Notes under the pieces: generated by a model
Told to the model about the DNA's origin: nothing
The model's input: the letters and a program-made list of their open reading frames with translations, nothing else
Database searches by the model: none
Assembly (NCBI GenBank): GCA_002366545.1
Contig: DFBH01000055.1
Coordinates: forward strand, 1-52,229
Reading direction: 5' to 3'
Length of the DNA stretch: 52,229 nt
Origin: Candidatus Oleimmundimicrobium americanum
GTDB lineage: Bacteria > Actinomycetota > Aquicultoria > UBA3085 > Oleimmundimicrobiaceae
Shown here: positions 167-47,806 of the stretch, one piece after another
Layout of the letters: every line of letters begins with the position of its first letter
How positions within the stretch are numbered: position 1 is the first letter of the stretch
Made by a program: the position numbers and the translations under genes

Positions 167-2965
167 GTGAATTACAAAAAGACGCTTAATCTCCCAAAGT
201 CAAAATTTTCAATGAAGGCAAATTTGGTTCAAAAAGAGCCTGAAATTTTGAAGTTCTGGGATGAAGTTGACATCTATAAATTAGTAAGCAAGAAGACCGC
301 CGAAGCCCCTTTTTTTATTCTGCATGACGGCCCGCCTTATGCAAATGGTGATATCCACTTGGGGCATACTCTCAATAAAGTTCTGAAAGATATTATCGTT
401 AAATACAAAACCATGAGAGGTTTTAATAGTCCGTATGTTCCCGGTTGGGATTGTCATGGGCAGCCAATTGAACACAACGTAGAAAAGAAATTGGGCAAAA
501 AAAAGAGTGAAGTTAGTCAAGTTAAGCTTAGAAAACTTTGCAGAGATTATGCTTTAAAATTTGTAAAACGGCAAACTCAGCAGTTTAAAAGATTGGGTGT
601 ACGCGGAGATTTTAAAAATCCGTATTTAACACTGAAACATCATTACGAAGCGATAAATGTTGAAGTTTTCGGCAAACTTTATAAAAATGGGAATATTTAT
701 AAAGGGAGAAAACCAATTCACTGGTGTTATCATTGTGAAACGGCTTTGGCAGAAGCTGAAATCGAATACAATGACGAAAAATCAACTTCAATATATGTAA
801 AATTTCCTCTAAAAAGTGAATTTGCCCCCCTCGACAGTTATAATTTGCCGAAGTACTTCTTAATTTGGACAACAACACCTTGGACATTGCCTGCAAATGT
901 GGCAATAGCAGTTAATCCTAAAGTTGAATATGTAGCAATTGAAGCGATGGACGAAATTTACATTGTAGCTAAAGATTTGGCTGAAAGAGTTTTTTCGGAG
1001 GCCGAGATTTTAAACTTTAAAGTTATAAAAACCTTTAAAGGCCAAGAACTCGAAGGCCTTGAATGTTTACATCCTTTTCAATCCCGAGAATCTATTATAA
1101 TATCGGCTGATTTTGTGGAATTAGATACCGGAAGCGGCTGTGTCCATATTGCTCCCGGTCACGGTCAAGAAGATTACCAGGCAGGGCTCAATTATAAATT
1201 ACCGATAATCATGCCCGTTGACGGCAAAGGCTTTTTTACTCAGGAAGCGGGCAAATATGTTGGACAACACGTAGAAGAAGCAAATGAAACCATTGTAAAT
1301 GATTTGAGAAAAGATAATTTGCTATTTCACTCTTCAACAATTACTCATTCATATCCACATTGTTGGCGTTGCAAAAATCCGGTTATCTTCCGAGCAACCG
1401 AGCAATGGTTCGTTTCTGCGGACGGTAAAGATCTTCGCAAGAAGGCGCTTGAAGAAATTAGGAAAGTAAATTGGATACCGTCATGGAGTGAAAAAAGAAT
1501 AACAAGCATGGTAAAAGATAGGCCCGACTGGTGTATATCTCGGCAAAGGGCGTGGGGTGTTCCGATTCCTGTCTTTTATTGTAGCGATTGCGGGAAAGAA
1601 ATTGTAACTTTTGAATCAATAAAATCCGTGTTAAATCTTTTTGAAAAAGACGGTTCCGATGCCTGGTTTACTAAATCAGCGGAAGAAATTTTGCCAGAAG
1701 GAACTATTTGCCAAAGTTGTAAAGGAACACAGTTTGTTAAAGAGAGTGACATATTAGATGTTTGGTTTGAATCCGGTGTTAGTCATTTTGCAGTACTAAA
1801 AAATAGATCCGACTTAAATTGGCCGGCGCAGCTTTATCTTGAAGGAAGCGATCAGCATCGCGGTTGGTTCCAGTCTTCTTTGCTGACATCTGTTGGATGT
1901 ACAGGGAAGGCGCCCTATGAATCTGTGCTTACCCATGGGTTTTTGGTGGATGGGGAAGGGCGTAAAATGTCTAAGTCTTTAGGTAATGTTGTTGATCCAT
2001 TGGAAGTTATTAAACAGTCGGGAGCCGATGTTTTGCGATTATGGGTGATTTCATCGGATTACACTTCGGATATAGCGGTTTCTCAAGAAATCCTCGAGCG
2101 AGTTTCTGAAGCTTATCGAAGAATTAGGAATACGATGAGGTTTTTAATGGGCAATTTGTATGATTTTGAACCGGAAAAGGATAAGGTAAATTATGAGAAT
2201 ATGGAAGAAATAGACAGATGGGTTCTCAGCCGACTGTATAAACTCATTAAAACCGTGACTCAGGCACACGATGAATACAAGTTTCACATCATCTATCATT
2301 CTATTTTTAATTTTTGCGTAACGGATTTAAGTTCGTTTTACCTTGATGTCCAAAAGGATTGCCTCTATACTTTTGCTCCGGATTCTAAAGAGCGCAGATC
2401 TTGCCAGACTGCTTTGTCTGAAATACTAATGTCATTGATAGGGATGCTTGCTCCGACCCTTGTTTTTACCGCTGAAGATGCTTGGAGAAGTTTGCCTGAT
2501 AACTACAAAGATGAAATTAGCGTGCAACTTACTTCTTGGCCTCAAGCAAATAACGATTTAATAGACGAGGAACTTGAGGAAAAATGGGATAAGCTTTTGA
2601 AGATTAGAGGAGAAGTTTTAAAAGCTTTAGAAACAATGAGAAACGAAAAGTTGATAGGAAATTCCCTTGAGGCCATGGTTACCATATATTCAAACCATGA
2701 ATTTTATAAGTTTTTAAATTCATATAAAGATATTTTGCCCGGCATCTTTATAGTTTCGCAAGTTAAGCTTTTTGATTCTGTTGACGATATACCGGGTAAG
2801 GCTTTTCAAAGCGAGGAATTACCGGGACTTTTAATTTTAATATCTAAAGCGTCGGGCGACAAATGTGAACGATGTTGGAATTATAGTGAAAGCGTTGGAG
2901 AAGATAATGAGTATCCGACAATTTGCTCTCGGTGTTTGAAAGTTATAAAAAGTCAAAGAAACTAA
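167..2965 (+). CDS. ileS: Isoleucine--tRNA ligase (type 1, with C-terminal Cys4 zinc finger)
   Basis: 932 aa. HIGH motif (PPYANGDIHLGH), KMSKS motif, editing-domain length, and C-terminal CERCWNY...CSRC. GTG start with GAGAGG upstream. Confidence 0.97.
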   Translation: MNYKKTLNLPKSKFSMKANLVQKEPEILKFWDEVDIYKLVSKKTAEAPFFILHDGPPYANGDIHLGHTLNKVLKDIIVKYKTMRGFNSPYVPGWDCHGQPIEHNVEKKLGKKKSEVSQVKLRKLCRDYALKFVKRQTQQFKRLGVRGDFKNPYLTLKHHYEAINVEVFGKLYKNGNIYKGRKPIHWCYHCETALAEAEIEYNDEKSTSIYVKFPLKSEFAPLDSYNLPKYFLIWTTTPWTLPANVAIAVNPKVEYVAIEAMDEIYIVAKDLAERVFSEAEILNFKVIKTFKGQELEGLECLHPFQSRESIIISADFVELDTGSGCVHIAPGHGQEDYQAGLNYKLPIIMPVDGKGFFTQEAGKYVGQHVEEANETIVNDLRKDNLLFHSSTITHSYPHCWRCKNPVIFRATEQWFVSADGKDLRKKALEEIRKVNWIPSWSEKRITSMVKDRPDWCISRQRAWGVPIPVFYCSDCGKEIVTFESIKSVLNLFEKDGSDAWFTKSAEEILPEGTICQSCKGTQFVKESDILDVWFESGVSHFAVLKNRSDLNWPAQLYLEGSDQHRGWFQSSLLTSVGCTGKAPYESVLTHGFLVDGEGRKMSKSLGNVVDPLEVIKQSGADVLRLWVISSDYTSDIAVSQEILERVSEAYRRIRNTMRFLMGNLYDFEPEKDKVNYENMEEIDRWVLSRLYKLIKTVTQAHDEYKFHIIYHSIFNFCVTDLSSFYLDVQKDCLYTFAPDSKERRSCQTALSEILMSLIGMLAPTLVFTAEDAWRSLPDNYKDEISVQLTSWPQANNDLIDEELEEKWDKLLKIRGEVLKALETMRNEKLIGNSLEAMVTIYSNHEFYKFLNSYKDILPGIFIVSQVKLFDSVDDIPGKAFQSEELPGLLILISKASGDKCERCWNYSESVGEDNEYPTICSRCLKVIKSQRN

Positions 2966-3038
2966 ATTGGGATATCGATTTTATATATATTAATGAAGCC
3001 TTAGTTTGGCAGAAAACATCGCAAATAGGAGGTAAATT

Positions 3039-3413
3039 GTGGTAGACAATAAGAGGCTTATTCTTTTAAAAGAAAAGCTGATAAATGAGAAAAGTCGTTT
3101 AGAGGATGAGTTAAAAGAGATTGAAGAGGGGAATGTAAATCAAACTCAATCCGAAGCGACCGGGGAAAATTCTTATGAAGATGATTTTGCAGATAGCGGA
3201 ACGGCAACTTTTGAGCGGGAGAAGGACCTCTCGCTGGATCGAAATATTAAAGATTTATTATTTCGGGTTGACAAGGCACTTGAACGCATAGAAAAAGGAA
3301 CTTATGGGAGATGTATTGTATGCGGTAAAGATATAGACCCCGCGAGATTGAAAGCTGTGCCATACGCAGATCTTTGCATCGAATGCAAAAAGAAAGAAGA
3401 AAAGAGCTGGTAG
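3039..3413 (+). CDS. DksA/TraR-family C4-type zinc-finger protein
   Basis: Coiled-coil N-terminus followed by CIVCGKDI...CIECKKK. AGGAGG RBS before the GTG start. Sits between ileS and lspA, as in many Bacillota. Confidence 0.85.
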   Translation: MVDNKRLILLKEKLINEKSRLEDELKEIEEGNVNQTQSEATGENSYEDDFADSGTATFEREKDLSLDRNIKDLLFRVDKALERIEKGTYGRCIVCGKDIDPARLKAVPYADLCIECKKKEEKSW

Positions 3414-3439
3414 TTTACTGAATAAACGGGGTTGATTAT

Positions 3440-3892
3440 TTGGTTTTTCTATTTATTGCAGGTATCGTATTTTTTATTGATCAATTAACGAAGTTATTTA
3501 TACGTCAAAATTTTCAGATTGGTGAAAGCATCCCTGTAGTAAATAATTTTTTTCATATAACTCGTGTTCAGAATAGAGGTGCGGCGTTTGGTTTGATGCC
3601 AGAGCAGCACCTCTTATTGATTTTGGTTGCCCTTTTTGTTGTTGTTTTTCTGGCTCTTTATTTTTGGCGCAAACAGCCAAAGGGTATTTTAATGCGAATA
3701 TCCCTTGGGACAATATTAGGTGGAGCCGTTGGGAATTTAACAGATCGATTATTTATCGGAAACGTAACTGATTTTCTTGATTTTTGCATCTGGCCGGTTT
3801 TTAATATTGCTGACTCTGCCATTGTAGTTGGAATTGTTTTGATATTGGTTTCGTTGTTTAAAAAACCACGTGGTAAATTAATTAAGAATTAA
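3440..3892 (+). CDS. lspA: Lipoprotein signal peptidase II
   Basis: 150-aa membrane protein with NRGAAFG and FNIADSAI motifs. Confidence 0.93.
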   Translation: MVFLFIAGIVFFIDQLTKLFIRQNFQIGESIPVVNNFFHITRVQNRGAAFGLMPEQHLLLILVALFVVVFLALYFWRKQPKGILMRISLGTILGGAVGNLTDRLFIGNVTDFLDFCIWPVFNIADSAIVVGIVLILVSLFKKPRGKLIKN

Positions 3893-3909
3893 GGTTATGA
3901 GGTGATAAT

Positions 3910-4650
3910 TTGCATCCGGTCTTAATAAAAATTGGATCAATATCGGTTTATTCGTATGGATTTATTCTTGCGGTGGCCTTTATAGTCAGCTTTTTCATTG
4001 CAATTTCTGAAGCAAAACGAAAGAGTATCTCTTTGGATGTTGTTTATGATTTAACATTGGCTGCAATGATTGGGGGAGTTGTAGGGGCCAGGATTTTTTA
4101 TGTTATTGCCCATTTGGATTATTTTTTCGAACATCTCTTAAAGATTTTCGTTATTCAAGACGGAGGGTTAGTATTTTACGGAGGTTTGGTGGGTGGTACC
4201 CTTGCAGTCTTTCTTGTTATTTCGCTTAAAAAACTTGTAACATCTAAAGTAGCGGATATGGTGGCTCCATGTTTAGCTCTTGGAGGAGCGATTGGACGCA
4301 TAGGTTGTTTTTTAAATGGCTGTTGTTATGGAAAACCCTCAAATGTGTTTTGGGTTGTTAAATTTCCGGGTTTGCCTTATGCTCGTCATCCAACTCAAAT
4401 TTACGATCTTTTATATAATTTAATTATCTTTGGAATTATTTGGAATTTTAGAAAAAAAACAGATAAAGATGGAATGATTTTCTGGATTTATTTATTTCTT
4501 TATTCTACCGGGCGTTTTATCGTTGAATTTTTTAGAGTTACGAAAATTGTATCTTTGGGATTGACAGGGGCTCAGTTGATAAGTCTGGGAATATTTTTAA
4601 TTTCAGCGGTTGTTTTGTTTAAAAAATATCTACTAAGTCGTTCTTCTTAA
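3910..4650 (+). CDS. lgt: Prolipoprotein diacylglyceryl transferase
   Basis: Polytopic membrane protein with GGLVFYGGL, GRIGCFLNGCCYG and HPTQIYD motifs. Confidence 0.93.
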   Translation: MHPVLIKIGSISVYSYGFILAVAFIVSFFIAISEAKRKSISLDVVYDLTLAAMIGGVVGARIFYVIAHLDYFFEHLLKIFVIQDGGLVFYGGLVGGTLAVFLVISLKKLVTSKVADMVAPCLALGGAIGRIGCFLNGCCYGKPSNVFWVVKFPGLPYARHPTQIYDLLYNLIIFGIIWNFRKKTDKDGMIFWIYLFLYSTGRFIVEFFRVTKIVSLGLTGAQLISLGIFLISAVVLFKKYLLSRSS

Positions 4651-5642: not shown

Positions 5643-6785
5643 TTATTCCCCATCCCTTTTTTTAATTGTTTTTAGATACAAACCGTAAGTTATGTTTTGT
5701 AGCTCTTTCGCCTCTTCGATAAGTTTTTTAGTTTTTTCATCAAGAGCGTTGCTGTCTAAAAGGTTTTTAAGAGATTTATTATCAATTTGTACAATTTTTT
5801 CCCAAAGATTCAGGGGTTCTAAAACATCTCTGACTTTTTCGGGGTCATAAATATATTTTGCTCTTTCAGATAAAGTAATGGCGTTGACCTGTGAAAAAAT
5901 TTGTTTTAAATTATGTTCTTCGAAATATTGACGAAGGATATCTTTTATCTTTTCAAGACGAGATGTAATTAATTTTTTTTGCCCATTAAGATTTGCATAT
6001 TCGTCTATCACCTTTTCAATTTCTATTGATCCCTCGGTTTTTTTAAATTTATCCTTAAAAAATGGACAACGAGCTTGGAATGCGCACCAAGGGCACAGAT
6101 TGTTTTGAATGGGGTCAAAATTGCCCGCTTTGATATTTTCGGCGGTTTGCAAGATTAGTTCCTCGATTTTTGGTAGCTCTTCAGCTTTTCTAATCGTGCT
6201 CATCCTTATATTTGGCACTACGAAATATAAAGTAAGTTTTTCCGGCTCAATTGACCAGATATTTTTTGCGGCAAAGTAATACATGGAAAGTTGTAGGTTT
6301 TCGTCAATTTTTGACTGAGGGGGAAGTTTTCTGTTTGTTTTATAGTCTATGATTTCCAAATTGCCATTTGGGGTTTTTTCAACCTTATCGATTATTCCTG
6401 TTAGAATACATGGTTCACCTGAAGATAAATTGTCGTCAAGCTTAATTTGAAATTTGTGTTCAAGCGCTACGGGTAGAGAAAAGCTGTCTACATTGGTGCG
6501 GTAAAAGTTTCTTAAAATTTGTTTTGCAAACTCTCGGTAGGTTTTTTCTTCTCCCTCGTCTGAATATCCTTCGGAAAACCAATTTTTGTTTAGAAAATTT
6601 AAAAGGTTTTCAAGAGAAGGTGGTTTTGGAGTGGGAACGTTATAAAAGTAATACAATGTTTTATGAATGGTGCTTCCAAAGCTTAAAGCGGGAGTTTTTT
6701 TGCGAGGGAATTTGTCCACGTAAATAAATTTGTAGGAAAGCGGACAGTTCCGATATGTTGAAATAGATGAGTAGCTAAGTTTCAT
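5643..6785 (-). CDS. Cas4/RecB-like PD-(D/E)XK nuclease with a 4-Cys (Fe-S type) cluster and a C-terminal helical extension of about 130 aa
   Basis: N-terminal Cys (YRNCPLSY); GIIDKV...LEIIDYKT (D...E-x-K core); QLSMYYF (QxxxY); C-x2-C-x5-C (CPWCAFQARC). GGAGG RBS. It is the only complete minus-strand gene in the window. Confidence 0.8.
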   Translation of the reverse strand: MKLSYSSISTYRNCPLSYKFIYVDKFPRKKTPALSFGSTIHKTLYYFYNVPTPKPPSLENLLNFLNKNWFSEGYSDEGEEKTYREFAKQILRNFYRTNVDSFSLPVALEHKFQIKLDDNLSSGEPCILTGIIDKVEKTPNGNLEIIDYKTNRKLPPQSKIDENLQLSMYYFAAKNIWSIEPEKLTLYFVVPNIRMSTIRKAEELPKIEELILQTAENIKAGNFDPIQNNLCPWCAFQARCPFFKDKFKKTEGSIEIEKVIDEYANLNGQKKLITSRLEKIKDILRQYFEEHNLKQIFSQVNAITLSERAKYIYDPEKVRDVLEPLNLWEKIVQIDNKSLKNLLDSNALDEKTKKLIEEAKELQNITYGLYLKTIKKRDGE

Positions 6786-6818: not shown

Positions 6819-6846
6819 TGTATACAGAACATATGTTCGCTGTCAA
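6819..6846 (-). promoter_or_regulatory. SOS promoter with a LexA (Cheo) box for the PD-(D/E)XK nuclease
   Basis: The minus strand reads TTGACA (6846-6841), then the 16-nt spacer gCGAACATATGTTCTg, then TATACA (6824-6819). The box at 6826-6839 matches CGAAC-N4-GTTC(G) at 13 of 14 positions, 41-54 nt upstream of the ATG. Confidence 0.75.
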
Positions 6847-37970: not shown

Positions 37971-39210
37971 GATATTAACGATAGGTTCCGAAATAACATT
38001 GGGATTATCGGTGGATACAAACTCTTGTGTCATATCAAGAGAACTTGGCAAAATTGGCATTGAAATTACGCGCATATCGAGCGTGCCTGATGATATTGAA
38101 TTAATAGCTTCGGCTATCGATGGAGCATTAAATCGAGCTGATTTTTTAACAATTACGGGTGGTTTGGGGCCAACCGTTGATGATTTAACCAGAGAAGCCA
38201 TTGTAAAATTTACCAAAAAAAAGCTTTTATTTGACCCTGATTTAGCTGGCCTAATCAAAAAAAGATATCTGAGTTTCAAAAGTTCAATGCCCGAAGTTGT
38301 TTTAAAACAAGCACATCTTCCCGAAGACACAATTCCAATAATACCGGTTCAAGGGACCGCGTCCGGTTTAATTATTGAAACCGGGGAGAAGGTCATTTTT
38401 GCGTTGCCGGGTGTTCCAAAGGAAATGGAAGAAATGTTACAGAGAGGGGTTGTCCCTTATCTTTTAAAACGTGTCGGTCACGATGAAATTATAAATATAA
38501 GGACACTTAAAATATGCGGTTTAAGTGAAGTTGAAATTCAGGAAAAGATTAAAAAAGTGCTTGAAGAAAAGAAAACGGCCATTGCTCTTATTCCTCATTT
38601 TGGTCAAGTTGACGTGCAAATAATTGCAAAAGGAAACCTCGACCATACCCAAAGAATTTTGCTTGAAACCGAAAATGAAATTCGAAAACAACTCAAAGAT
38701 TATATTTTTGGGGTAAATGAAGAGAATTTGGAAAAAGTCATTGGAGATATTTTAAGAGAACGCAAACTTACGCTGTCCGTTGCGGAATCCTGTACGGGCG
38801 GATTGCTTTCCAATCGCATAACCAATGTCCCCGGAAGTTCAGATTATTTCCAAGGAGGTATTATTTCATATAGCAACAAAATTAAAGAGGCCGTTCTTGG
38901 CGTGCCCGAAGAAATTTTATCTAATTACGGGGCCGTTAGTTCTCAGACAGCTGAAGCCATGGCAAGCGGAGCGGCTCATGTTTGCAACGCGGATGTGTCG
39001 TTGGCAATTACAGGGATAGCGGGTCCGGGCGGTGGAAGCAGAGATAAACCCGTGGGTACCGTCTGCATTGCTTTGTGGAGTAAGGAATTTACTTACTGTA
39101 AGAAGTTTCAGTTTTGCGGCTCAAGGGAAGAAATAAAATGGAAAGCGTCTCAAAAAGCATTGGGAATCGTTTGGAGATTTCTACTTAAAAAACCTATAGG
39201 TAGGGATTAA
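37960..39210 (+). CDS. cinA: Competence/damage-inducible protein CinA (MoCF-like N-domain plus PncC nicotinamide-nucleotide amidase C-domain)
   Basis: Two-domain CinA architecture and the canonical pgsA-cinA-(recA) synteny. Confidence 0.93.
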   Translation: MNCEILTIGSEITLGLSVDTNSCVISRELGKIGIEITRISSVPDDIELIASAIDGALNRADFLTITGGLGPTVDDLTREAIVKFTKKKLLFDPDLAGLIKKRYLSFKSSMPEVVLKQAHLPEDTIPIIPVQGTASGLIIETGEKVIFALPGVPKEMEEMLQRGVVPYLLKRVGHDEIINIRTLKICGLSEVEIQEKIKKVLEEKKTAIALIPHFGQVDVQIIAKGNLDHTQRILLETENEIRKQLKDYIFGVNEENLEKVIGDILRERKLTLSVAESCTGGLLSNRITNVPGSSDYFQGGIISYSNKIKEAVLGVPEEILSNYGAVSSQTAEAMASGAAHVCNADVSLAITGIAGPGGGSRDKPVGTVCIALWSKEFTYCKKFQFCGSREEIKWKASQKALGIVWRFLLKKPIGRD

Positions 39211-39774
39211 ATGTTGAGGTTATTTGTAGCACTGGAGATTCCTGATGAGTTAAAACACGAAATTGCGTTGTTGAGCGGAAAATTAAACGAGGACATCAAA
39301 AACGCTAAATGGGTTCCCGAGAGAAATCTTCATTTAACTTTGAAGTTTCTGGGGCAGTGCGGGGATGAAATGCCGCTTGAGATCGAGTCCCGTCTTAAGG
39401 CTTTGACTAAAAAATTTAACCGTTTTAATTTTAGGTTAAGCGGTTTGGGAGCTTTTCCGTCAATTAAGAGAGCTCGCGTCCTCCATGTTGGCGTGAACGA
39501 GGGCAGGGAAAATATAATTAGTTTGCAGCACTCTATCAAGGAATCTCTTTATCAGGTTGGCTTTGCCAAAGACGAGAGAGAATTTTCTCCCCATATTACG
39601 TTTGCAAGGTTGAAAAATCCCTGTAACGTTGAGAGATTTTTAAAAAAAATGGATACGAGAGGTTTTTCAAAACGTTTTGTAGAAGTTAATAGCGTTAATC
39701 TTTTTAGAAGCCATTTGATGTCAAGCGGACCAATTTATGAGAAAATTTTAGAAATAAAACTAAAAGATGATTGA
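39211..39774 (+). CDS. thpR: RNA 2',3'-cyclic phosphodiesterase (2H family, LigT/ThpR)
   Basis: Two H-x-T-x motifs (HLTLKF, HITFAR). 187 aa. Confidence 0.9.
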   Translation: MLRLFVALEIPDELKHEIALLSGKLNEDIKNAKWVPERNLHLTLKFLGQCGDEMPLEIESRLKALTKKFNRFNFRLSGLGAFPSIKRARVLHVGVNEGRENIISLQHSIKESLYQVGFAKDEREFSPHITFARLKNPCNVERFLKKMDTRGFSKRFVEVNSVNLFRSHLMSSGPIYEKILEIKLKDD

Positions 39775-39799
39775 CATTCGAACCTATGTTCGATAAAAT
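39771..39799 (+). promoter_or_regulatory. SOS promoter: TTGACA, a 17-nt spacer containing a perfect Cheo/LexA box, then TAAAAT
   Basis: TTGACA at 39771-39776 overlaps the thpR stop. CGAACCTATGTTCG at 39779-39792 is an exact CGAAC-N4-GTTCG. TAAAAT at 39794-39799. Confidence 0.85.
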
Positions 39800-39907
39800 T
39801 TGTGGGTAAAGACATATAGGAGGAATTGAAAGTTGCTAAATAATCACCAAAACTTATCAAAATGGTAGACGTGGGGGCAGAAAGAAGTTAAAAGAGGAGT
39901 TAGATAT

Positions 39908-41215
39908 ATGAGAAAAGTTATACATGGTGAAATTTATAGCCCTGATTTTGATAATCTCAATAAATTAGTATCTGATTGGGCTTCTGCCTATAGGTTTTCC
40001 TTCTGTCGATTTCAGAAAGATAAATTAAGTTTCAACGAAGTTAGAAATTGGGCAAAGACAAAATATCCGTCCTTAAATACTCGCCAAATATCTGATGTGG
40101 TCACACAAGCACAAGGATTGTATTCAAGAGTTGAAGATAAAAAAGTAATATTTGGTGGAAGAAAATATTGGGACAAGTTAATAAAGAATGAGATATCTAA
40201 TGATGAGTGGAAATTCAAAAGAGATAACCAAATATATGTCAGAGGAGATAAAACTAAAAAAGGTAACCCAAATATCCGATTGTTAAACAAAAACGGTGGT
40301 TTTTATTTAAGAGTAACTATTGGAAACAGAAAATTCGAGGAGCATAAACTATTTGTCCCTGCTAAGTTTGAGGAACAATTAGTATCTTTATTCGGTTCAG
40401 GTAATCCTTATAATGTTCGTTTGATAAAAAAAGGCTCACAGCATTATAAAATGGTTATTGATTATGAAGTTGAAAATCCTCAAACAGTAATTGATTTTTC
40501 AAATGGAGTTATTGGCGTAGACGTAAACCCTGACAGGGTTGCAATTTCTGATATAAGGAGAGATGGAAATTTAATCAACTCTTTTTCTGTATTGAACAAT
40601 AGGATGTTTTTTGCATCAACGAACAAAAGAGATTATGAAATTGGTTGCATAGTTAAGCAGATTATGCAGTATGCTTTAAATAGAAATAAGGGAATAGTGT
40701 TTGAAAATTTGAAATTTAAGAAAGAATTTGAGAATCAAGGTAGAAGGTTTAATAGGATAAAGAGTAATTTTGTCTGGAAAAAGTTGCTTACATTGCTTGA
40801 GAGGAAATGTATTGAAAATGGTATTCAATATAAGAAAGTCAATCCCGCTTTTACTTCTGTTATAGGAAAATTTAAATATCAAAAAATGTATAATTTATCC
40901 ATCCATGAATCTGCCTCTTATATAATAGGCAGACGCGGATTAGGATTTAATGAGAAATTATCTCTTTATAAATATCCATCAAAATATGTGAAGGAAGTTG
41001 TTTTTGACCTTGCCGGAAATAAAACAAAACGAATTCACAGTTGGGCTTCGTGGAGAAAGTTAAGAGATAATTATAAAAAAGCCGTCCTCACAGGACTTCA
41101 GGGAAGAATGTCAGACCTAAAAGAGTCTGATGACAATCTCTGTTATGTAGGTGAGAACCCTACAGGCGAAGTCCTCTCAAAAGAACTGGTCTTGAGGGGC
41201 ATAAATGGTTACTAA
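39908..41215 (+). CDS. TnpB/Cas12-superfamily (IS200/IS605 OrfB-like) protein lacking the zinc ribbon and with an atypical RuvC-III motif
   Basis: RuvC-I-like VIGVDVNPDR; RuvC-II-like GIVFENLKF; NPAFTSVIG in place of the usual TS-x-x-C zinc-finger entry; IHESASYIIGRRGLG where D-x-D/N-AA-x-N is expected. No CxxC pair occurs anywhere. GAGGAG RBS 8 nt upstream. The gene is visibly more AT-rich than its neighbours. Confidence 0.7.
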   Translation: MRKVIHGEIYSPDFDNLNKLVSDWASAYRFSFCRFQKDKLSFNEVRNWAKTKYPSLNTRQISDVVTQAQGLYSRVEDKKVIFGGRKYWDKLIKNEISNDEWKFKRDNQIYVRGDKTKKGNPNIRLLNKNGGFYLRVTIGNRKFEEHKLFVPAKFEEQLVSLFGSGNPYNVRLIKKGSQHYKMVIDYEVENPQTVIDFSNGVIGVDVNPDRVAISDIRRDGNLINSFSVLNNRMFFASTNKRDYEIGCIVKQIMQYALNRNKGIVFENLKFKKEFENQGRRFNRIKSNFVWKKLLTLLERKCIENGIQYKKVNPAFTSVIGKFKYQKMYNLSIHESASYIIGRRGLGFNEKLSLYKYPSKYVKEVVFDLAGNKTKRIHSWASWRKLRDNYKKAVLTGLQGRMSDLKESDDNLCYVGENPTGEVLSKELVLRGINGY

Positions 41216-41258
41216 ACATCTATAGGAAGAAGAAAGGCTTCCTTCAAAGCTCATTATT

Positions 41259-41288
41259 TGGACCAAGGGTCCATTGTCCTCTGGACAA
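41259..41288 (+). repeat. 30-nt twin-hairpin cassette (TGGACC-aag-GGTCCA followed by TTGTCC-tct-GGACAA) in the TnpB-like/recA spacer
   Basis: Two abutting perfect hairpins, each with a 6-bp stem and 3-nt loop. The architecture is the same as the indel cassette at 43042-43071, and the TTGTCC/GGACAA stem is shared. Confidence 0.8.
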
Positions 41289-41315
41289 TTTGGTGGGTTT
41301 TGTAAACCAGGGGAA

Positions 41316-42362
41316 ATGGAACGCGACAAAGTATTGGAATTGACAAAAGAACAAATTGAGAGAAAATACGGCAAAGGCGCCATTATGAGACTTGGCGATA
41401 ATCCTTTTAAGCTTGATTACTCGGTAATTTCAACGGGTTCTTTAGCTTTGGATGTTGCATTGGGCGTGGGCGGGATTCCAAGGGGAAGGGTTGTTGAGAT
41501 ATTTGGGCCGGAAGCGTCGGGCAAGACCACTCTGGCCTTGCAAATAATCGCTCAAGCTCAAAAAACAGGGGGAGCAGCGGCATTTATCGATGCTGAACAT
41601 GCTCTTGACTCAGCGTATGCGCGGAACCTGGGAGTGGATGTAGATAACTTGCTTGTTTCTCAACCCGATACGGGCGAACAAGCACTTGAAATTGCAGAAA
41701 TGCTTGTTAGAAGCGGAGCTCTTGACGTTGTGGTTATTGATTCAGTTGCCGCGCTTGTGCCCCGAGCTGAGATTGAGGGTGATATGGGAGATTCCCACGT
41801 AGGTCTCCAAGCGAGGTTAATGTCACAAGCTCTGCGAAAATTATCCGGCGTCATCAGTAAATCTCAAACCTCTGCAATATTTATCAACCAACTACGAGAA
41901 AAAATAGGGATAATGTTTGGCAATCCCGAGGTAACTCCGGGTGGTCGTGCTTTAAAATTTTATTCTTCCGTGAGGATTGATATAAGGAGGATTGAGTCTC
42001 TCAAACAGGGGATTGATATTGTCGGAAACAGGGTTCGCGCAAAAATTGTTAAAAATAAAGTCGCTCCTCCTTTTAAAAAGGCAGAATTTGACATCGTTTA
42101 CGGCAAAGGAATTTCCAGAGAGGGCACTTTAATCGATATGGGTGTTGACCAAGGGATAGTGAATAAAAGCGGAGCTTGGTACACTTGTGGGGACGAGAGG
42201 CTTGGCCAGGGAAGAGAAAACGCAAAGCAGTTTTTACAGGAAAATCTCAAAATGGCCGATGAGATAGAAAAAAAGATTAAGGTTGCGGTTGGTTTAATTG
42301 AAAACGAAGAAAAAACTGATAAAAAAACCGATAAACAAGCAAAAAATAAAAGCATGGGTTAA
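41316..42362 (+). CDS. recA: Recombinase RecA
   Basis: [28 protein letters not shown]-terminus and Walker [11 protein letters not shown] prefer the ATG at 41316. The ORF-track TTG at 41274 lies inside the hairpin cassette and adds a non-RecA extension. The SD is weak and close either way. Confidence 0.95.
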
Positions 42363-42376
42363 GTGTTTAATAAAAG

Positions 42377-42847
42377 ATGATTTCCAATGATGAAAAAAGA
42401 GCGATAAATAAAGCTCTTAAGTATCTTAGTTATAGAGCTCGCAGCGTTAAAGAAACAAAAGTTTATCTAACGAAAAAAGGGTATAGCGAAGATATTATTG
42501 ACGGGGTTATAAAATATCTTAGAGAACGTGATTATTTAAACGATTTGGTTTATGCAAAGATGTGGATTGAGGATAGGAAAGAGCGAAAACTTTTTGGTCG
42601 AAACAGGATAAGGTCTGAGTTGATTTTAAAAGGGATAGATTCAAATTTAGTTGAGGAAGAACTTACCAAATTGTATTTGGAAGAAGACGAAGAGGGGAAA
42701 GCTTTTAAAGTAGCCGAAAAGCAATTAAAAAAATATAAGGAATTTGATAATTCGACTAAAAAAAGAAAGCTTTATCGATACTTGGCAAACAGGGGATTTA
42801 ATACGGAAGTTTCCATAAAAGTGTGTGAAAGGTTGTTAGTGCTATAA
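42377..42847 (+). CDS. recX: Recombination regulator RecX
   Basis: 156-aa helical-repeat protein immediately after recA, with RecX-like repeats (YLSYRARSVKE...). Confidence 0.85.
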   Translation: MISNDEKRAINKALKYLSYRARSVKETKVYLTKKGYSEDIIDGVIKYLRERDYLNDLVYAKMWIEDRKERKLFGRNRIRSELILKGIDSNLVEEELTKLYLEEDEEGKAFKVAEKQLKKYKEFDNSTKKRKLYRYLANRGFNTEVSIKVCERLLVL

Positions 42848-42904
42848 ACCACCGGTTTATCCGGTGGGCACGGCGGTAGGCAGGTCGTGGCAACCCCTCA
42901 CCTC

Positions 42905-43311
42905 CGTCATTGCGCCTGTCCGCCTCTGGCGGGAGCCCTGGTAAGGGCGTGGCAATCTCGGTTTAGCCATAATAGCCAACTTTCTTTTTTGTTTATTCAG
43001 TTGTATTTTTTGTGGGTCGCACGCACTTCACGCTCGGTTGTTTGTCCAAAGGACAATCCTCCTCTGGAGGAATCCGCGACTTTACTCGCTCCGGGCGGGC
43101 CGAGAATAACTCGCTTGCGCTCAGACAGATTCTCGGGCGCTCACTTCGTTCGTCTGTCCGCCTTCAGCCAGAAAGAGGCTTGAGCCAAGGGTTCATCAGC
43201 CTCTGGCTGAGATGGTCCCCTGGACTACTGGAGGGCTTTCCGGCCATCCACTCGCTTCATCGGGGCGGCCTCAAATTTCGCCTTGTCCAACCCACCGGGG
43301 TTTTAAAAACC
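42905..43311 (+). repeat. Copy A of a GC-rich mosaic repeat of roughly 350-400 bp
   Basis: Aligns by eye with 47181-47534 from CGTCATTGCGCCTGTCCGCC through GGCAATCTCGGTTTA..., CTTTCTTTTTTGTTTATTCA.TTGTATTTTTTGTGGGTCG, GGGCCGAGAATAACTCGCTTGCGCTCAGACAGATTCTCGGGCGCTCAC and TTCATCGGGGCGGCCTCAA.TTTCGC to CCCACCGGGGTTT. Three hairpin-associated indels interrupt the alignment. Confidence 0.85.
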
Positions 43312-43342
43312 ATAATCAGTAAAAAGCTTTTATTTTTTTCCT

Positions 43343-43364
43343 GAAAGCTAACGGCTGGCAGCTG
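43343..43364 (+). repeat. NNNNGCT heptamer array (3 units)
   Basis: GAAAGCT AACGGCT GGCAGCT G. The paralogous position in the second island carries 4+4 units. Confidence 0.7.
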
Positions 43365-43498
43365 TATTCAAATGATATGGCAACTAGCGAATAGCAGATG
43401 GCGGGAGGAGCGTTAAGCGACGCGGCAATCTCTGGGTTACATTTTACATTTTTCATTATCGTTTTTATATTTTCATTTTTATTTCTTATTTTGAAAAA

Positions 43499-43629
43499 CC
43501 TGCCCGCCTTCAGCCAAAGGTTTCAGCCAAAGGCTGATGGTTCTCTGGACTACTGGCGGGAGTGACCAAAGGAAGCGCGGCAATCTCATCCTCCTCCCGC
43601 CCTCGATGGGAGGGGCGGGAGGAGGATGA
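43499..43629 (+). repeat. Hairpin-repeat unit with a 46-nt loop insert, followed by a purine/pyrimidine hairpin of about 19 bp
   Basis: CCCGCC (43503-43508), insert TTCAGCCAAAGG...GGACTACT (43509-43554), GGCGGG (43555-43560), then ...GCGCGGCAATCTC (to 43587). Then TCATCCTCCTCCCGCCCTC / GAGGGGCGGGAGGAGGATGA (43586-43629), which has one bulged G. Confidence 0.8.
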
Positions 43630-43955
43630 GACAAACAATGGCCGGTGGCTTTTCTGCCCTGTGGTTGGTGGTAGTTTACTTGGCTTTTGATTTTTATAAT
43701 TGACAACAACCGGTCTTTAATAATAATATGATTAAGAATTGTTTTTAAGTTAATAATGGTTGAATTTAAATAGTAGATGTTTTTAAGTATTGTTGGGATG
43801 TTAATATATTTACTTAATTAGTTAATCGATTGTTCATATAAATTTAAAGCTTAAGTTCAAGCTTTAAGATTTTAATTAAATATGGCTAAGAGATTTCCTT
43901 AAATAATTTAATTTATTTAAGGATGATTTGAATTTAATTAAGTAAATTAGAACTT

Positions 43956-47074: not shown

Positions 47075-47180
47075 GACGAAGGAATTTTGTTAAATCTACA
47101 AATATTGAGATTAATAAAGAGATTTCATCGAAATTCCTGAGCTGGGCGGCCGATCATTTTTTACGGCTCCTCCCGCCATC

Positions 47181-47534
47181 CGTCATTGCGCCTGTCCGCC
47201 TTCAGCCAAAGGTTTCAACCAAAGGCTGATGGTCCTCTGGACTACTGGCGGGAGCGACCAAAGGAAGCGCGGCAATCTCGGTTTAACTATAATAGCTAAC
47301 TTTCTTTTTTGTTTATTCAATTGTATTTTTTGTGGGTCGAACACGCTCCACGCTCGGCCGTATCCGCGACTTTACTCGTTCCAGGCGGGCCGAGAATAAC
47401 TCGCTTGCGCTCAGACAGATTCTCGGGCGCTCACTTTGCTCGCCTGCCCACCTCTGGTGGGCTTTCCGGCCTTCCGCTCGTTTCATCGGGGCGGCCTCAA
47501 GTTTCGCTTTGTCCGACCCACCGGGGTTTAAAAG
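47181..47534 (+). repeat. Copy B of the GC-rich mosaic repeat (same orientation as copy A)
   Basis: See copy A. Compared with A, B carries a 46-nt insert in the first CCGCC/GGCGG hairpin (47201-47246). B lacks the 30-nt twin hairpin and the 67-nt insert that A carries. Confidence 0.85.
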
Positions 47535-47563
47535 GCAAAACTAATGCCTATTGGCTGTATATT

Positions 47564-47658
47564 CGTCATTGCGCCTGCCCGCCTCTGGCGGGAGTGACCC
47601 GCCAACGGTGGGGAGCGCGGCAATCTCGTTCTCACCCCTCCCTCAATGGGAGGGGTGA
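47564..47658 (+). repeat. Short hairpin-repeat unit (CGTCATTGCGCCTG...GCGCGGCAATCTC) followed by an 11-bp purine/pyrimidine hairpin
   Basis: CCCGCC-tct-GGCGGG at 47578-47592 and GGCAATCTC at 47619-47627. TCACCCCTCCC (47632-47642), loop tcaat, GGGAGGGGTGA (47648-47658). Confidence 0.8.
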
Positions 47659-47732
47659 GGGGAGGGTGAAACAAACAACCCACTCGGGTTTTTAAAAACC
47701 AAAATCTAACAACAATGCTCTTTTGTTTTCCT

Positions 47733-47806
47733 GAAGGCTGAAGGCTAGAGGCTAATGGCTGTTTCTAATGTTTTTCCTGGAGACTGGCGTCTGGCAGCTG
47801 GAGTCT
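47733..47806 (+). repeat. Two NNNNGCT/NNNNNCT heptamer arrays (4+4 units)
   Basis: GAAGGCT GAAGGCT AGAGGCT AATGGCT (47733-47760), and GGAGACT GGCGTCT GGCAGCT GGAGTCT (47779-47806). Confidence 0.75.

Follow-up and report, generated by a model that had tools for sequence, protein, structure and literature searches.

We asked why, in Candidatus Oleimmundimicrobium americanum (GenBank contig DFBH01000055.1, positions 1 to 52,229, analysed as a whole and called the window below), a promoter carrying a LexA box at the place where recA is expected leads first into a gene for a TnpB-like protein of 435 amino acids, with recA itself starting 1.5 kb further downstream. A sequence-only reading of the window had offered two answers, namely a fresh insertion sequence that hijacks SOS control, or a fixed operon linking an RNA-guided type of protein to the SOS response. 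Our explanation of the whole locus, which we consider highly probable, is that a selfish element of the IS607 type inserted into the Shine-Dalgarno (SD) sequence of recA and is transcribed by read-through from the SOS promoter.

Comparison of the recA locus with uninterrupted relatives

Searches with the RecA protein found matches of 99%, 97% and 86% identity in close relatives; the nearest of those with a name belong to Candidatus Oleimmundimicrobium and other deep-branching Actinomycetota. The contigs of these relatives are collinear with the window (rodZ-like, yajQ, rimO, pgsA, cinA, thpR, recA, recX and rny), and the gap between thpR and recA measures only 53-54 bp in the loci L113-L116 (97-99% RecA identity) and L134-L136 (86%), from which the insert is absent. 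With a slash marking the junction, the empty site reads TTGACATCCGAACTTATGTTCGATAAGATTTRTGGGTAAAGACATATAGGAGG/GGAAATGGAACGC in the alignment (in split form, ..ATAGGAGG/GGAAATG). The left junction in the window is ...ATATAGGAGG (last base 39823)/AATTGAAAG, that is GGAGG/AATTG, and the right junction is ...GTAAACCAGG (last base 41311)/GGAAATG, that is CCAGG/GGAAATG. Compared as recA leader sequences, the empty allele is AGGAGGGGAAATG; the occupied one reads ..CCAGGGGAAATG and includes the full insert. BLAST placed the breakpoints at 39823 and 41309, with an overlap of 3 nt (AGG). The alignment and the BLAST breakpoints together define an insertion of 1,488 bp on the plus strand (39824-41311, or alternatively 39822-41309 given the shared GG) between the recA SD AGGAGG and the ATG. 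The original SD (39818-39823, plus strand) is now the left flank of the insert and resembles a target-adjacent motif (TAM), and its GG at 39822-39823 would be the crossover dinucleotide.

A GG is found in both junctions and in the unoccupied target, and the window copy has neither terminal inverted repeats nor a target duplication, its junctions sharing only 2-3 nt, (A)GG. Both the GG and the lack of repeats and duplication have been described for IS607 transposition (PMC6188088; 10.1101/2023.11.20.567912). Nucleotide identity in the flanks is 96-97% with L113/L114 and 93.5-95% with L115/L116. The proposal of a fresh insertion therefore stands, as the 1,488-bp insert is missing from collinear relatives at 93-97% nucleotide identity and has junctions and relatives of the IS607 type. 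The same insertion is present in L010 (Logan SRR5324184, 100% identical) and L011 (JGI 3300001749, 99.98%), so it is not an assembly artefact; it is restricted to one strain lineage, comprising the window, L010 and L011. No further copy of the element was found in the window by tblastn or blastn. Among the matches listed in a RecA scan of genome contigs, relatives had at most 73% identity and none was a close genome with an empty site, and a CinA scan of metagenome contigs returned only relatives at about 40% identity.

Two related copies show longer direct repeats across their junctions, GGTATAAGAA (10 bp) in L004 (5906-5925/7360-7380) and GGTTTT in L129 (around 2415-2432/3862-3880). These repeats are at odds with IS607 transposition without target duplication; the first 8-10 nt of the left ends otherwise vary between elements.

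Promoter and LexA box upstream of recA

The promoter on the plus strand at 39771-39799 consists, as the sequence-only reading had described, of a -35 element TTGACA (39771-39776), a 17-nt spacer ttCGAACCTATGTTCGa and a -10 element TAAAAT (39794-39799). It matches the consensus at 11 of 12 positions and is the top site within 39000-43000. The spacer contains the exact box CGAACCTATGTTCG (CGAAC-N4-GTTCG) at 39779-39792, the sole exact match in the 52 kb; with one mismatch allowed, the window has 3 matches where 0.94 are expected. This predicted LexA box of the SOS/Cheo type can be extended to a 16-bp palindrome, TCGAAC-N4-GTTCGA, at 39778-39793 with CTAT as N4. The consensus of the Cheo/SOS box is CGAAC-N4-GTTCG, and that of mycobacteria TCGAAC-N4-GTTCGA.

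Promoter and box precede recA in the relatives with 97-99% RecA identity (TTGACATCCGAACTTATGTTCGATAAGAT; L113-L116, junction alignment) and in a relative with 86% identity (TTGACATCGAACACTTGTTCGTATAAAAT; L135), and are thus found in alleles with and without the insert. In relatives whose RecA is 86-99% identical, N4 differs but the half-sites and the -35 element do not, as one would expect if the operator is functional. Comparing the cinA-recA interval in relatives thus showed the TnpB-like gene to be absent and the LexA box to be conserved, and, judged by this conservation, the LexA-box promoter is the ordinary native promoter of recA. It shares with the LexA-regulated recA promoters of Gram-positive bacteria and Actinobacteria an exact, conserved palindromic box that overlaps the promoter directly before recA; here the promoter itself is ordinary, and what sets the locus apart is solely the insertion that follows it.

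A second LexA-like box with one mismatch, AGAACATATGTTCG, lies at 6826-6839, about 40 bp upstream of a minus-strand gene (5643-6785) for a 380-amino-acid PD-(D/E)XK/Cas4-like nuclease with a C-terminal cluster of cysteines. This gene is a candidate member of the SOS regulon, and the position of the box in front of it fits a small regulon of this kind.

Delineation of the element and its family

The first open reading frame (ORF) downstream of the promoter is the 435-codon TnpB-like gene (39908-41215, plus strand), which has its own SD (GAGGAG, 39894-39899, 7-8 bases before the start), and recA starts at 41316, both as previously read. Homology searches with the protein gave 425 matches. They belong to the clade PF27229, whose name 'SSO2105_N' comes from precomputed annotation of the homologues only. 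Homologues lie directly behind a MerR_1+Resolvase gene, the hallmark of the IS607 transposase TnpA, in L001-3 and L008, and next to a degraded resolvase gene in L119. Others are found in phage-like contigs (L004-7), and the closest relative of the 435-amino-acid protein (86% identity) lies in a conjugative type IV secretion region (L012-14). In L129 (JGI 3300009329, 2501-4453), a copy of the element with 70% identity stands 7 nt before the GTG of rplU, encoding L21, ahead of rpmA and obg. The clade thus tolerates insertion before essential and highly expressed genes, or even depends on it. The other host-gene contexts of the clade comprise a YbjQ-family gene, phage genes and plasmid genes. Among viral contigs, the single-protein query found no homologue and the family alignment found two loci only.

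At the DNA level, related loci resemble the window from about 39862 to 41250 and again over a 23-nt island ending at 41311. All right ends finish in TTTTGTAAACCAGG or a close variant (CCAGG), and the similarity between loci stops exactly there. The left end (39824-39861, plus strand) carries the conserved motif (A/G)TGCTAAATAATCACCAA, which matches the left ends of L001, L004, L129 and L119 right after their GGAGG flanks. It is followed by a stretch (39862-39907, plus strand) that includes the SD of the TnpB-like gene and corresponds by homology to the final ~46 nt of tnpA, the MerR-resolvase gene, in L001, which makes the window copy a tnpA-less, non-autonomous derivative. By the sequence of its junctions, its partners and the layout of its RNA, all of which agree with those of the family, the 1,488-bp element is a non-autonomous member of IS607.

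We rejected an IStron as an alternative class, the left end being only 84 bp long and no group I intron being found by Rfam, either at the gathering threshold over the whole window or at E<=5 on 39700-41450. By eye, a conserved motif of the left end, CACCAAAA (39844-39851), is the reverse complement of a conserved motif of the right end, TTTTGGTG (41288-41295); the two could be transposase-binding repeats or could mediate RNA pairing between the ends.

Insertion at ribosome-binding sites

All six left flanks that we mapped end in GGAGG: TAGGAGG in the window, GGGAGG in L001, AAGGAGG in both L004 and L129, TAGGAGG in L119 and TTGGAGG in L008. On the other side, a co-oriented host gene begins 4-12 nt past the right end in 9/9 right flanks. 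AGGAG and GAGGG have been reported as TAMs of IS607 TnpBs (PMC11061315), so that a purine-rich, SD-like target is not new in itself. In the literature searched we found no paper tying IS607 insertion to SD sites, and no description of this gene arrangement or of the clade (IS607/SD, TnpB/LexA/SOS, SSO2105).

The left ends of the window copy, L001, L119 and L004 open 8-10 nt after the captured SD with an ATG or TTG followed by a short ORF. In the window this putative leader ORF (39833-39868, plus strand) begins with TTG 9 nt past the host SD and would encode LNNHQNLSKW before its stop. Its stop codon overlaps the start of the TnpB-like gene in L004 (ATGA), and in the homologue P0005 the leader is fused in frame to the protein. 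This arrangement suggests that the element uses the host SD through the leader ORF. The recA gene is left with CCAGG plus flank (CCAGGGG) as its SD, and the predicted pairing energy with the anti-SD changes from -10.7 to -6.5 kcal/mol. The recA gene is intact (41316-42362, plus strand, ATG at 41316; Pfam RecA, E=3.6e-138) and differs from the uninterrupted allele of L113 by 36 synonymous and 5 non-synonymous codons, a pattern of substitution consistent with purifying selection and continued function.

Because the clade targets the GGAGG ribosome-binding sites of many genes, any SOS control of the TnpB-like gene would be a by-product of where this copy landed. To say that the element hijacks SOS control, which the sequence-only reading had proposed as one possibility, therefore overstates its specificity, recA being one target among many.

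Predicted fold and putative active site of the TnpB-like protein

The protein scores 58.7 bits against TIGR01766, the TnpB-related domain (cut-off 32), 61 bits against NF040570, guided_TnpB, which is below the cut-off of 100, and 22 bits against Pfam TNB, below the cut-off of 26, the last match spanning profile positions 1-28 of 60. Searches of PDB sequences with the single protein and with a family profile gave no meaningful match, and the kinship is visible by fold only. An AlphaFold2 model built with 50 homologues has a mean predicted local distance difference test score (pLDDT) of 79.9, and its C-terminal 40 residues, which overlap the RNA region described below, are disordered. Foldseek matched the model to PDB structures with probability 1.0, namely to AsCas12f (2e-12), ISDra2 TnpB (8exa, 1e-6) and ISFba1 TnpB (8iaz, 2e-6), at TM-scores of about 0.5. 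On this predicted structure, we regard a WED-REC-RuvC fold in common with Cas12f and TnpB as a sound assignment.

In the family alignment (n=50), D205 (GVDVNPD), E266 (VFENL) and H333 are invariant. The third RuvC motif reads I-H333-E334-S-A-A in place of the canonical D-x-N-A-A, and H333 or E334 would sit where the third catalytic Asp normally lies; this residue equivalence is a motif comparison only, as hhalign against E. coli InsQ gave a probability of 0.4% and aligned only the first Asp motif. A His beside an acidic residue in the third motif presumably recalls RuvC and the RuvC-III motif of Cas9, which we take as a lead only. Since the zinc finger is missing and, by motif comparison, so is the third Asp, we named the family a TnpB-like variant clade and not a canonical TnpB. 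The earlier term 'TnpB-like' is thus backed by fold and genomic context, and falls short in these two features.

Detection of a guide-RNA-like scaffold

We aligned nine independent loci over a stretch that begins ~165 nt before the end of the gene and extends slightly beyond the right end. RNAalifold folded this alignment into eight helices, with compensatory changes in 31 of 54 pairs. Paired cells amounted to 97.7%, against 35-50% when the partners were slid by 1-3 columns, and the doubly changed pairs numbered 31, against 2-7 in the slid controls; none of 500 shuffles reached the observed values. The resulting scaffold (231 nt, 41081-41311, plus strand) overlaps the last 45 codons of the gene and reaches the right end (...UUUUGUAAACCAGG), and on its covariation its architecture is that of an omega-RNA or right end element RNA (reRNA). 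No Rfam guide-RNA family, RAGATH-18 included, matched the whole window at the gathering threshold or 39700-41450 at E<=5. The window copy has a 30-nt insert, TGGACCAAGGGTCCATTGTCCTCTGGACAA, at 41257-41286 in the loop of the last helix, which forms two small hairpins and is absent from 8/8 related elements.

By analogy with the guide RNAs of IS607 TnpBs (10.1101/2023.11.20.567912; PMC11061315), the predicted guide segment and its target would be GGAAATGGAACGCGACAAAG (41312-41331, plus strand). The guide would comprise the 16-20 nt past 41311, GGAAAUGGAACGCGACAAAG, and so cover the rest of the recA spacer, the AUG and the first codons. The guide-matching sequence is preceded by CCAGG in the occupied locus and by GGAGG in the empty allele, which would leave TAM and target together only in uninterrupted recA alleles, as in other TnpB systems.

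Comparison with known RNA-guided systems

IS607 elements with an RNA-guided TnpB (ISFba1, the RAGATH-18 reRNA systems and CboIStron) are the nearest in kind. They share with the element described here a serine-recombinase TnpA in full-length relatives, the GG core at junctions and target with neither inverted repeats nor duplication, an AG-rich TAM at the left end (GGAGG here, AGGAG or GAGGG there; PMC11061315), a scaffold that ends at the right end and takes its guide from the flank, and the frequent occurrence of copies lacking tnpA. Unlike ISFba1 TnpB, the protein here belongs to the separate clade PF27229, falls below the guided_TnpB cut-off, has no zinc finger and carries His-Glu in place of D371 of ISFba1. 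The RNA differs from the ISFba1 reRNA in lacking an Rfam match and in overlapping the 3' end of the coding sequence, and the element differs from IStrons in lacking a group I intron.

With ISDra2, whose TnpB is of the IS200/IS605 type, the element has in common the Cas12f/TnpB fold, an omega-RNA over the 3' end of the gene, a TAM on the left and a guide on the right, and the expected role of recognising the empty donor or target site. The two differ in their transposition enzyme (a serine recombinase here, Y1 HUH there), in their target (GGAGG against a TTGAT-type target), in the third RuvC motif and in the zinc finger. TldRs resemble the window protein in being small proteins of TnpB fold whose RuvC C-terminal region is altered and which have, alongside, a guide RNA aimed at the start of a host gene. 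TldRs are fixed beside partner genes such as fliC and oppF, have lost the transposon ends and use guides that target a promoter elsewhere, whereas the copy here has intact IS607 ends, is polymorphic, has a guide identical to its flank and an untruncated RuvC region.

Explanation of the locus and alternatives

Under an IS607-type insertion, an exchange of the kind catalysed by serine recombinases, at the GG within the recA SD (AGGAGG/GGAAATG), would have placed the non-autonomous element about 18 nt past the likely transcription start (near 39806) and 4 nt before the ATG of recA. The order would then be the left end with its leader ORF behind the captured SD, the tnpA stub, the TnpB-like gene and the omega-type RNA. 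Transcription from the recA promoter would pass through the element into recA and recX, and such read-through is the most likely course because the insert is co-oriented and carries no recognisable promoter or terminator signals. The TnpB-like gene and the RNA would thereby be LexA-repressed and damage-inducible, and recA and recX would be expressed from a leader about 1.5 kb longer, recA with a weaker SD. Both the dependence of recA on read-through and the placement of the TnpB-like gene under the LexA promoter are consistent with the arrangement of the locus. By analogy with other TnpB systems, the protein-RNA pair would recognise, and probably cut, the GGAGG-flanked empty recA site, with recombination restoring the element (retention or homing). 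As guide and GGAGG targets occur together only in uninterrupted alleles, we expect the pair to play the selfish part usual for such elements. Homing that depends on recombination would be well served by co-induction with RecA; this co-induction is best seen as a by-product of the landing site.

Several observations weigh against this explanation. No intact tnpA is present in the window, only its remnant of ~46 nt, and the arrival of the copy is not reconstructable. The empty-site genomes are 3-6% divergent in the flanks, so that the insertion is lineage-specific and not necessarily very recent. No ORF with an S24-peptidase motif, as expected of lexA, lies within the 52-kb window. The promoter scan used a sigma-70 consensus and could overlook an outward promoter of low strength at the right end of the element. 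As to the protein, the zinc finger between the 'FTS' and the third motif is absent (4 Cys at 33, 247, 301 and 412, with 0 CxxC pairs), and E334 is replaced by Q in 2 of the 50 family sequences, which together with the His-Glu motif makes nuclease activity uncertain.

The best surviving alternative, which we nevertheless think unlikely, is that the element has an internal or outward promoter of its own, from which recA or the guide RNA would be transcribed without regard to the LexA promoter, or that it terminates transcription inside, so that the TnpB-like gene but not recA is under SOS control, or vice versa. Relatives stand directly before essential genes, such as rplU-rpmA-obg in L129, and the element must therefore permit downstream expression by some route. 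To our knowledge, moreover, no promoters from this deep-branching actinobacterial lineage have been characterised. However, our scans found no plus-strand promoter-like site of at least 9/12 within 39955-41340 and no hairpin followed by a U-tract between the stop codon of the TnpB-like gene and recA, in line with the sequence-only reading, which had seen no convincing promoter or U-tract terminator there. The sole terminator-like hairpin on the plus strand (39977-39990) is weak, and the count of hairpins is not above that of shuffled sequence. The shared orientation of all nine insertions with the downstream gene is, moreover, what read-through from host promoters predicts.

Far less probable still is domestication, in which the TnpB-like gene and its RNA would serve recA as a regulator or partner linked to SOS, in the manner of a TldR and as a nuclease-dead RNA-guided factor, in a functional operon under selection. 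The non-canonical third RuvC motif and the missing zinc finger would fit such a role, as would an intact gene behind a LexA box and a guide that coincides with the translation start of recA. A guide that matches the DNA beside the right end is common to all IS607 and IS605 elements, however, so a match to recA is nothing remarkable. Only a single strain has the arrangement, which is absent from relatives at 93-97% nucleotide identity; members of the clade precede unrelated genes (rplU, the YbjQ-family gene, phage and plasmid genes) and adjoin IS607 transposases, and D205, E266 and H333 do not vary among the copies carried by transposons. The second answer of the sequence-only reading, a fixed operon that ties an RNA-guided type of protein to SOS, is not supported, given this pattern of presence and absence among relatives and the diverse contexts of the homologues.

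That a mobile-element contig was misjoined at recA to give an assembly chimera is barely credible: the data are of metagenomic type and the GC content of the insert is 33% against 39% for the window, but identical junctions occur in three independent assemblies (window, L010 and L011) and lie at GG exactly as IS607 chemistry predicts.

Other features of the window

Upstream of the promoter lies thpR, encoding a LigT-type 2'-5' RNA ligase or phosphoesterase (39211-39774, plus strand; Pfam LigT_PEase, E=3.6e-29), which precedes recA in L113-L116 and L134-L136. Downstream of recA, in the same unit, is recX (42377-42847, plus strand), with RecX_HTH domains in L010 and L113. Gene callers start RecA at a TTG at 41274 within the right end of the element, giving 362 amino acids. 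Insert-free relatives begin at the ATG equivalent to 41316 (348 amino acids), so the longer RecA is an annotation artefact of the insertion.

Two regions, 42880-43720 and 47150-47800, have a GC content of 51-53% against 39% for the window. They are mosaics of short repeat modules with hairpin potential, such as CGTCATTGCGCCTGTCCGCCTCTGGCGGGAG...GCGCGGCAATCTC, and module pairs shared by the recX-rny spacer and the second intergenic region have 77-97% identity. The content of these regions varies among close relatives. The modules look like intergenic repeats of the repetitive extragenic palindromic (REP) or miniature inverted-repeat transposable element (MITE) type; Rfam gave no match in either region.

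Significance of the insertion

An inserted mobile element can look like part of an operon, a confusion that is quickly cleared up by comparing close relatives. For the strain itself, a recA with a 1.5-kb leader and a weaker SD could change the dynamics of recombination and of the SOS response. For the clade, sense placement between ribosome-binding site and start codon (recA, rplU) implies that it exploits the transcription and translation signals of its hosts while leaving essential genes expressed.

We would go further only as a speculation that is probably wrong: that the clade is specialised for sense insertion at GGAGG ribosome-binding sites, borrowing the promoter and SD of the host by way of its leader ORF and giving back CCAGG as a replacement SD, and that it has here produced a damage-inducible, recA-guided protein co-induced with the recombinase that homing needs. 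If this were true and the protein active, the element would amount to a gene drive at recA timed by SOS; if the protein were nuclease-dead, it could be a first step to an RNA-guided regulator of recA alleles that arrive by gene transfer. The combination of a TnpB/Cas12f fold and a guide RNA with a His-Glu third motif and no zinc finger is in any case a testable natural variant of the active site. The gene order at recA is striking but its cause ordinary; it is the targeting of ribosome-binding sites, the capture of host signals and the active-site motif that merit the interest of specialists.

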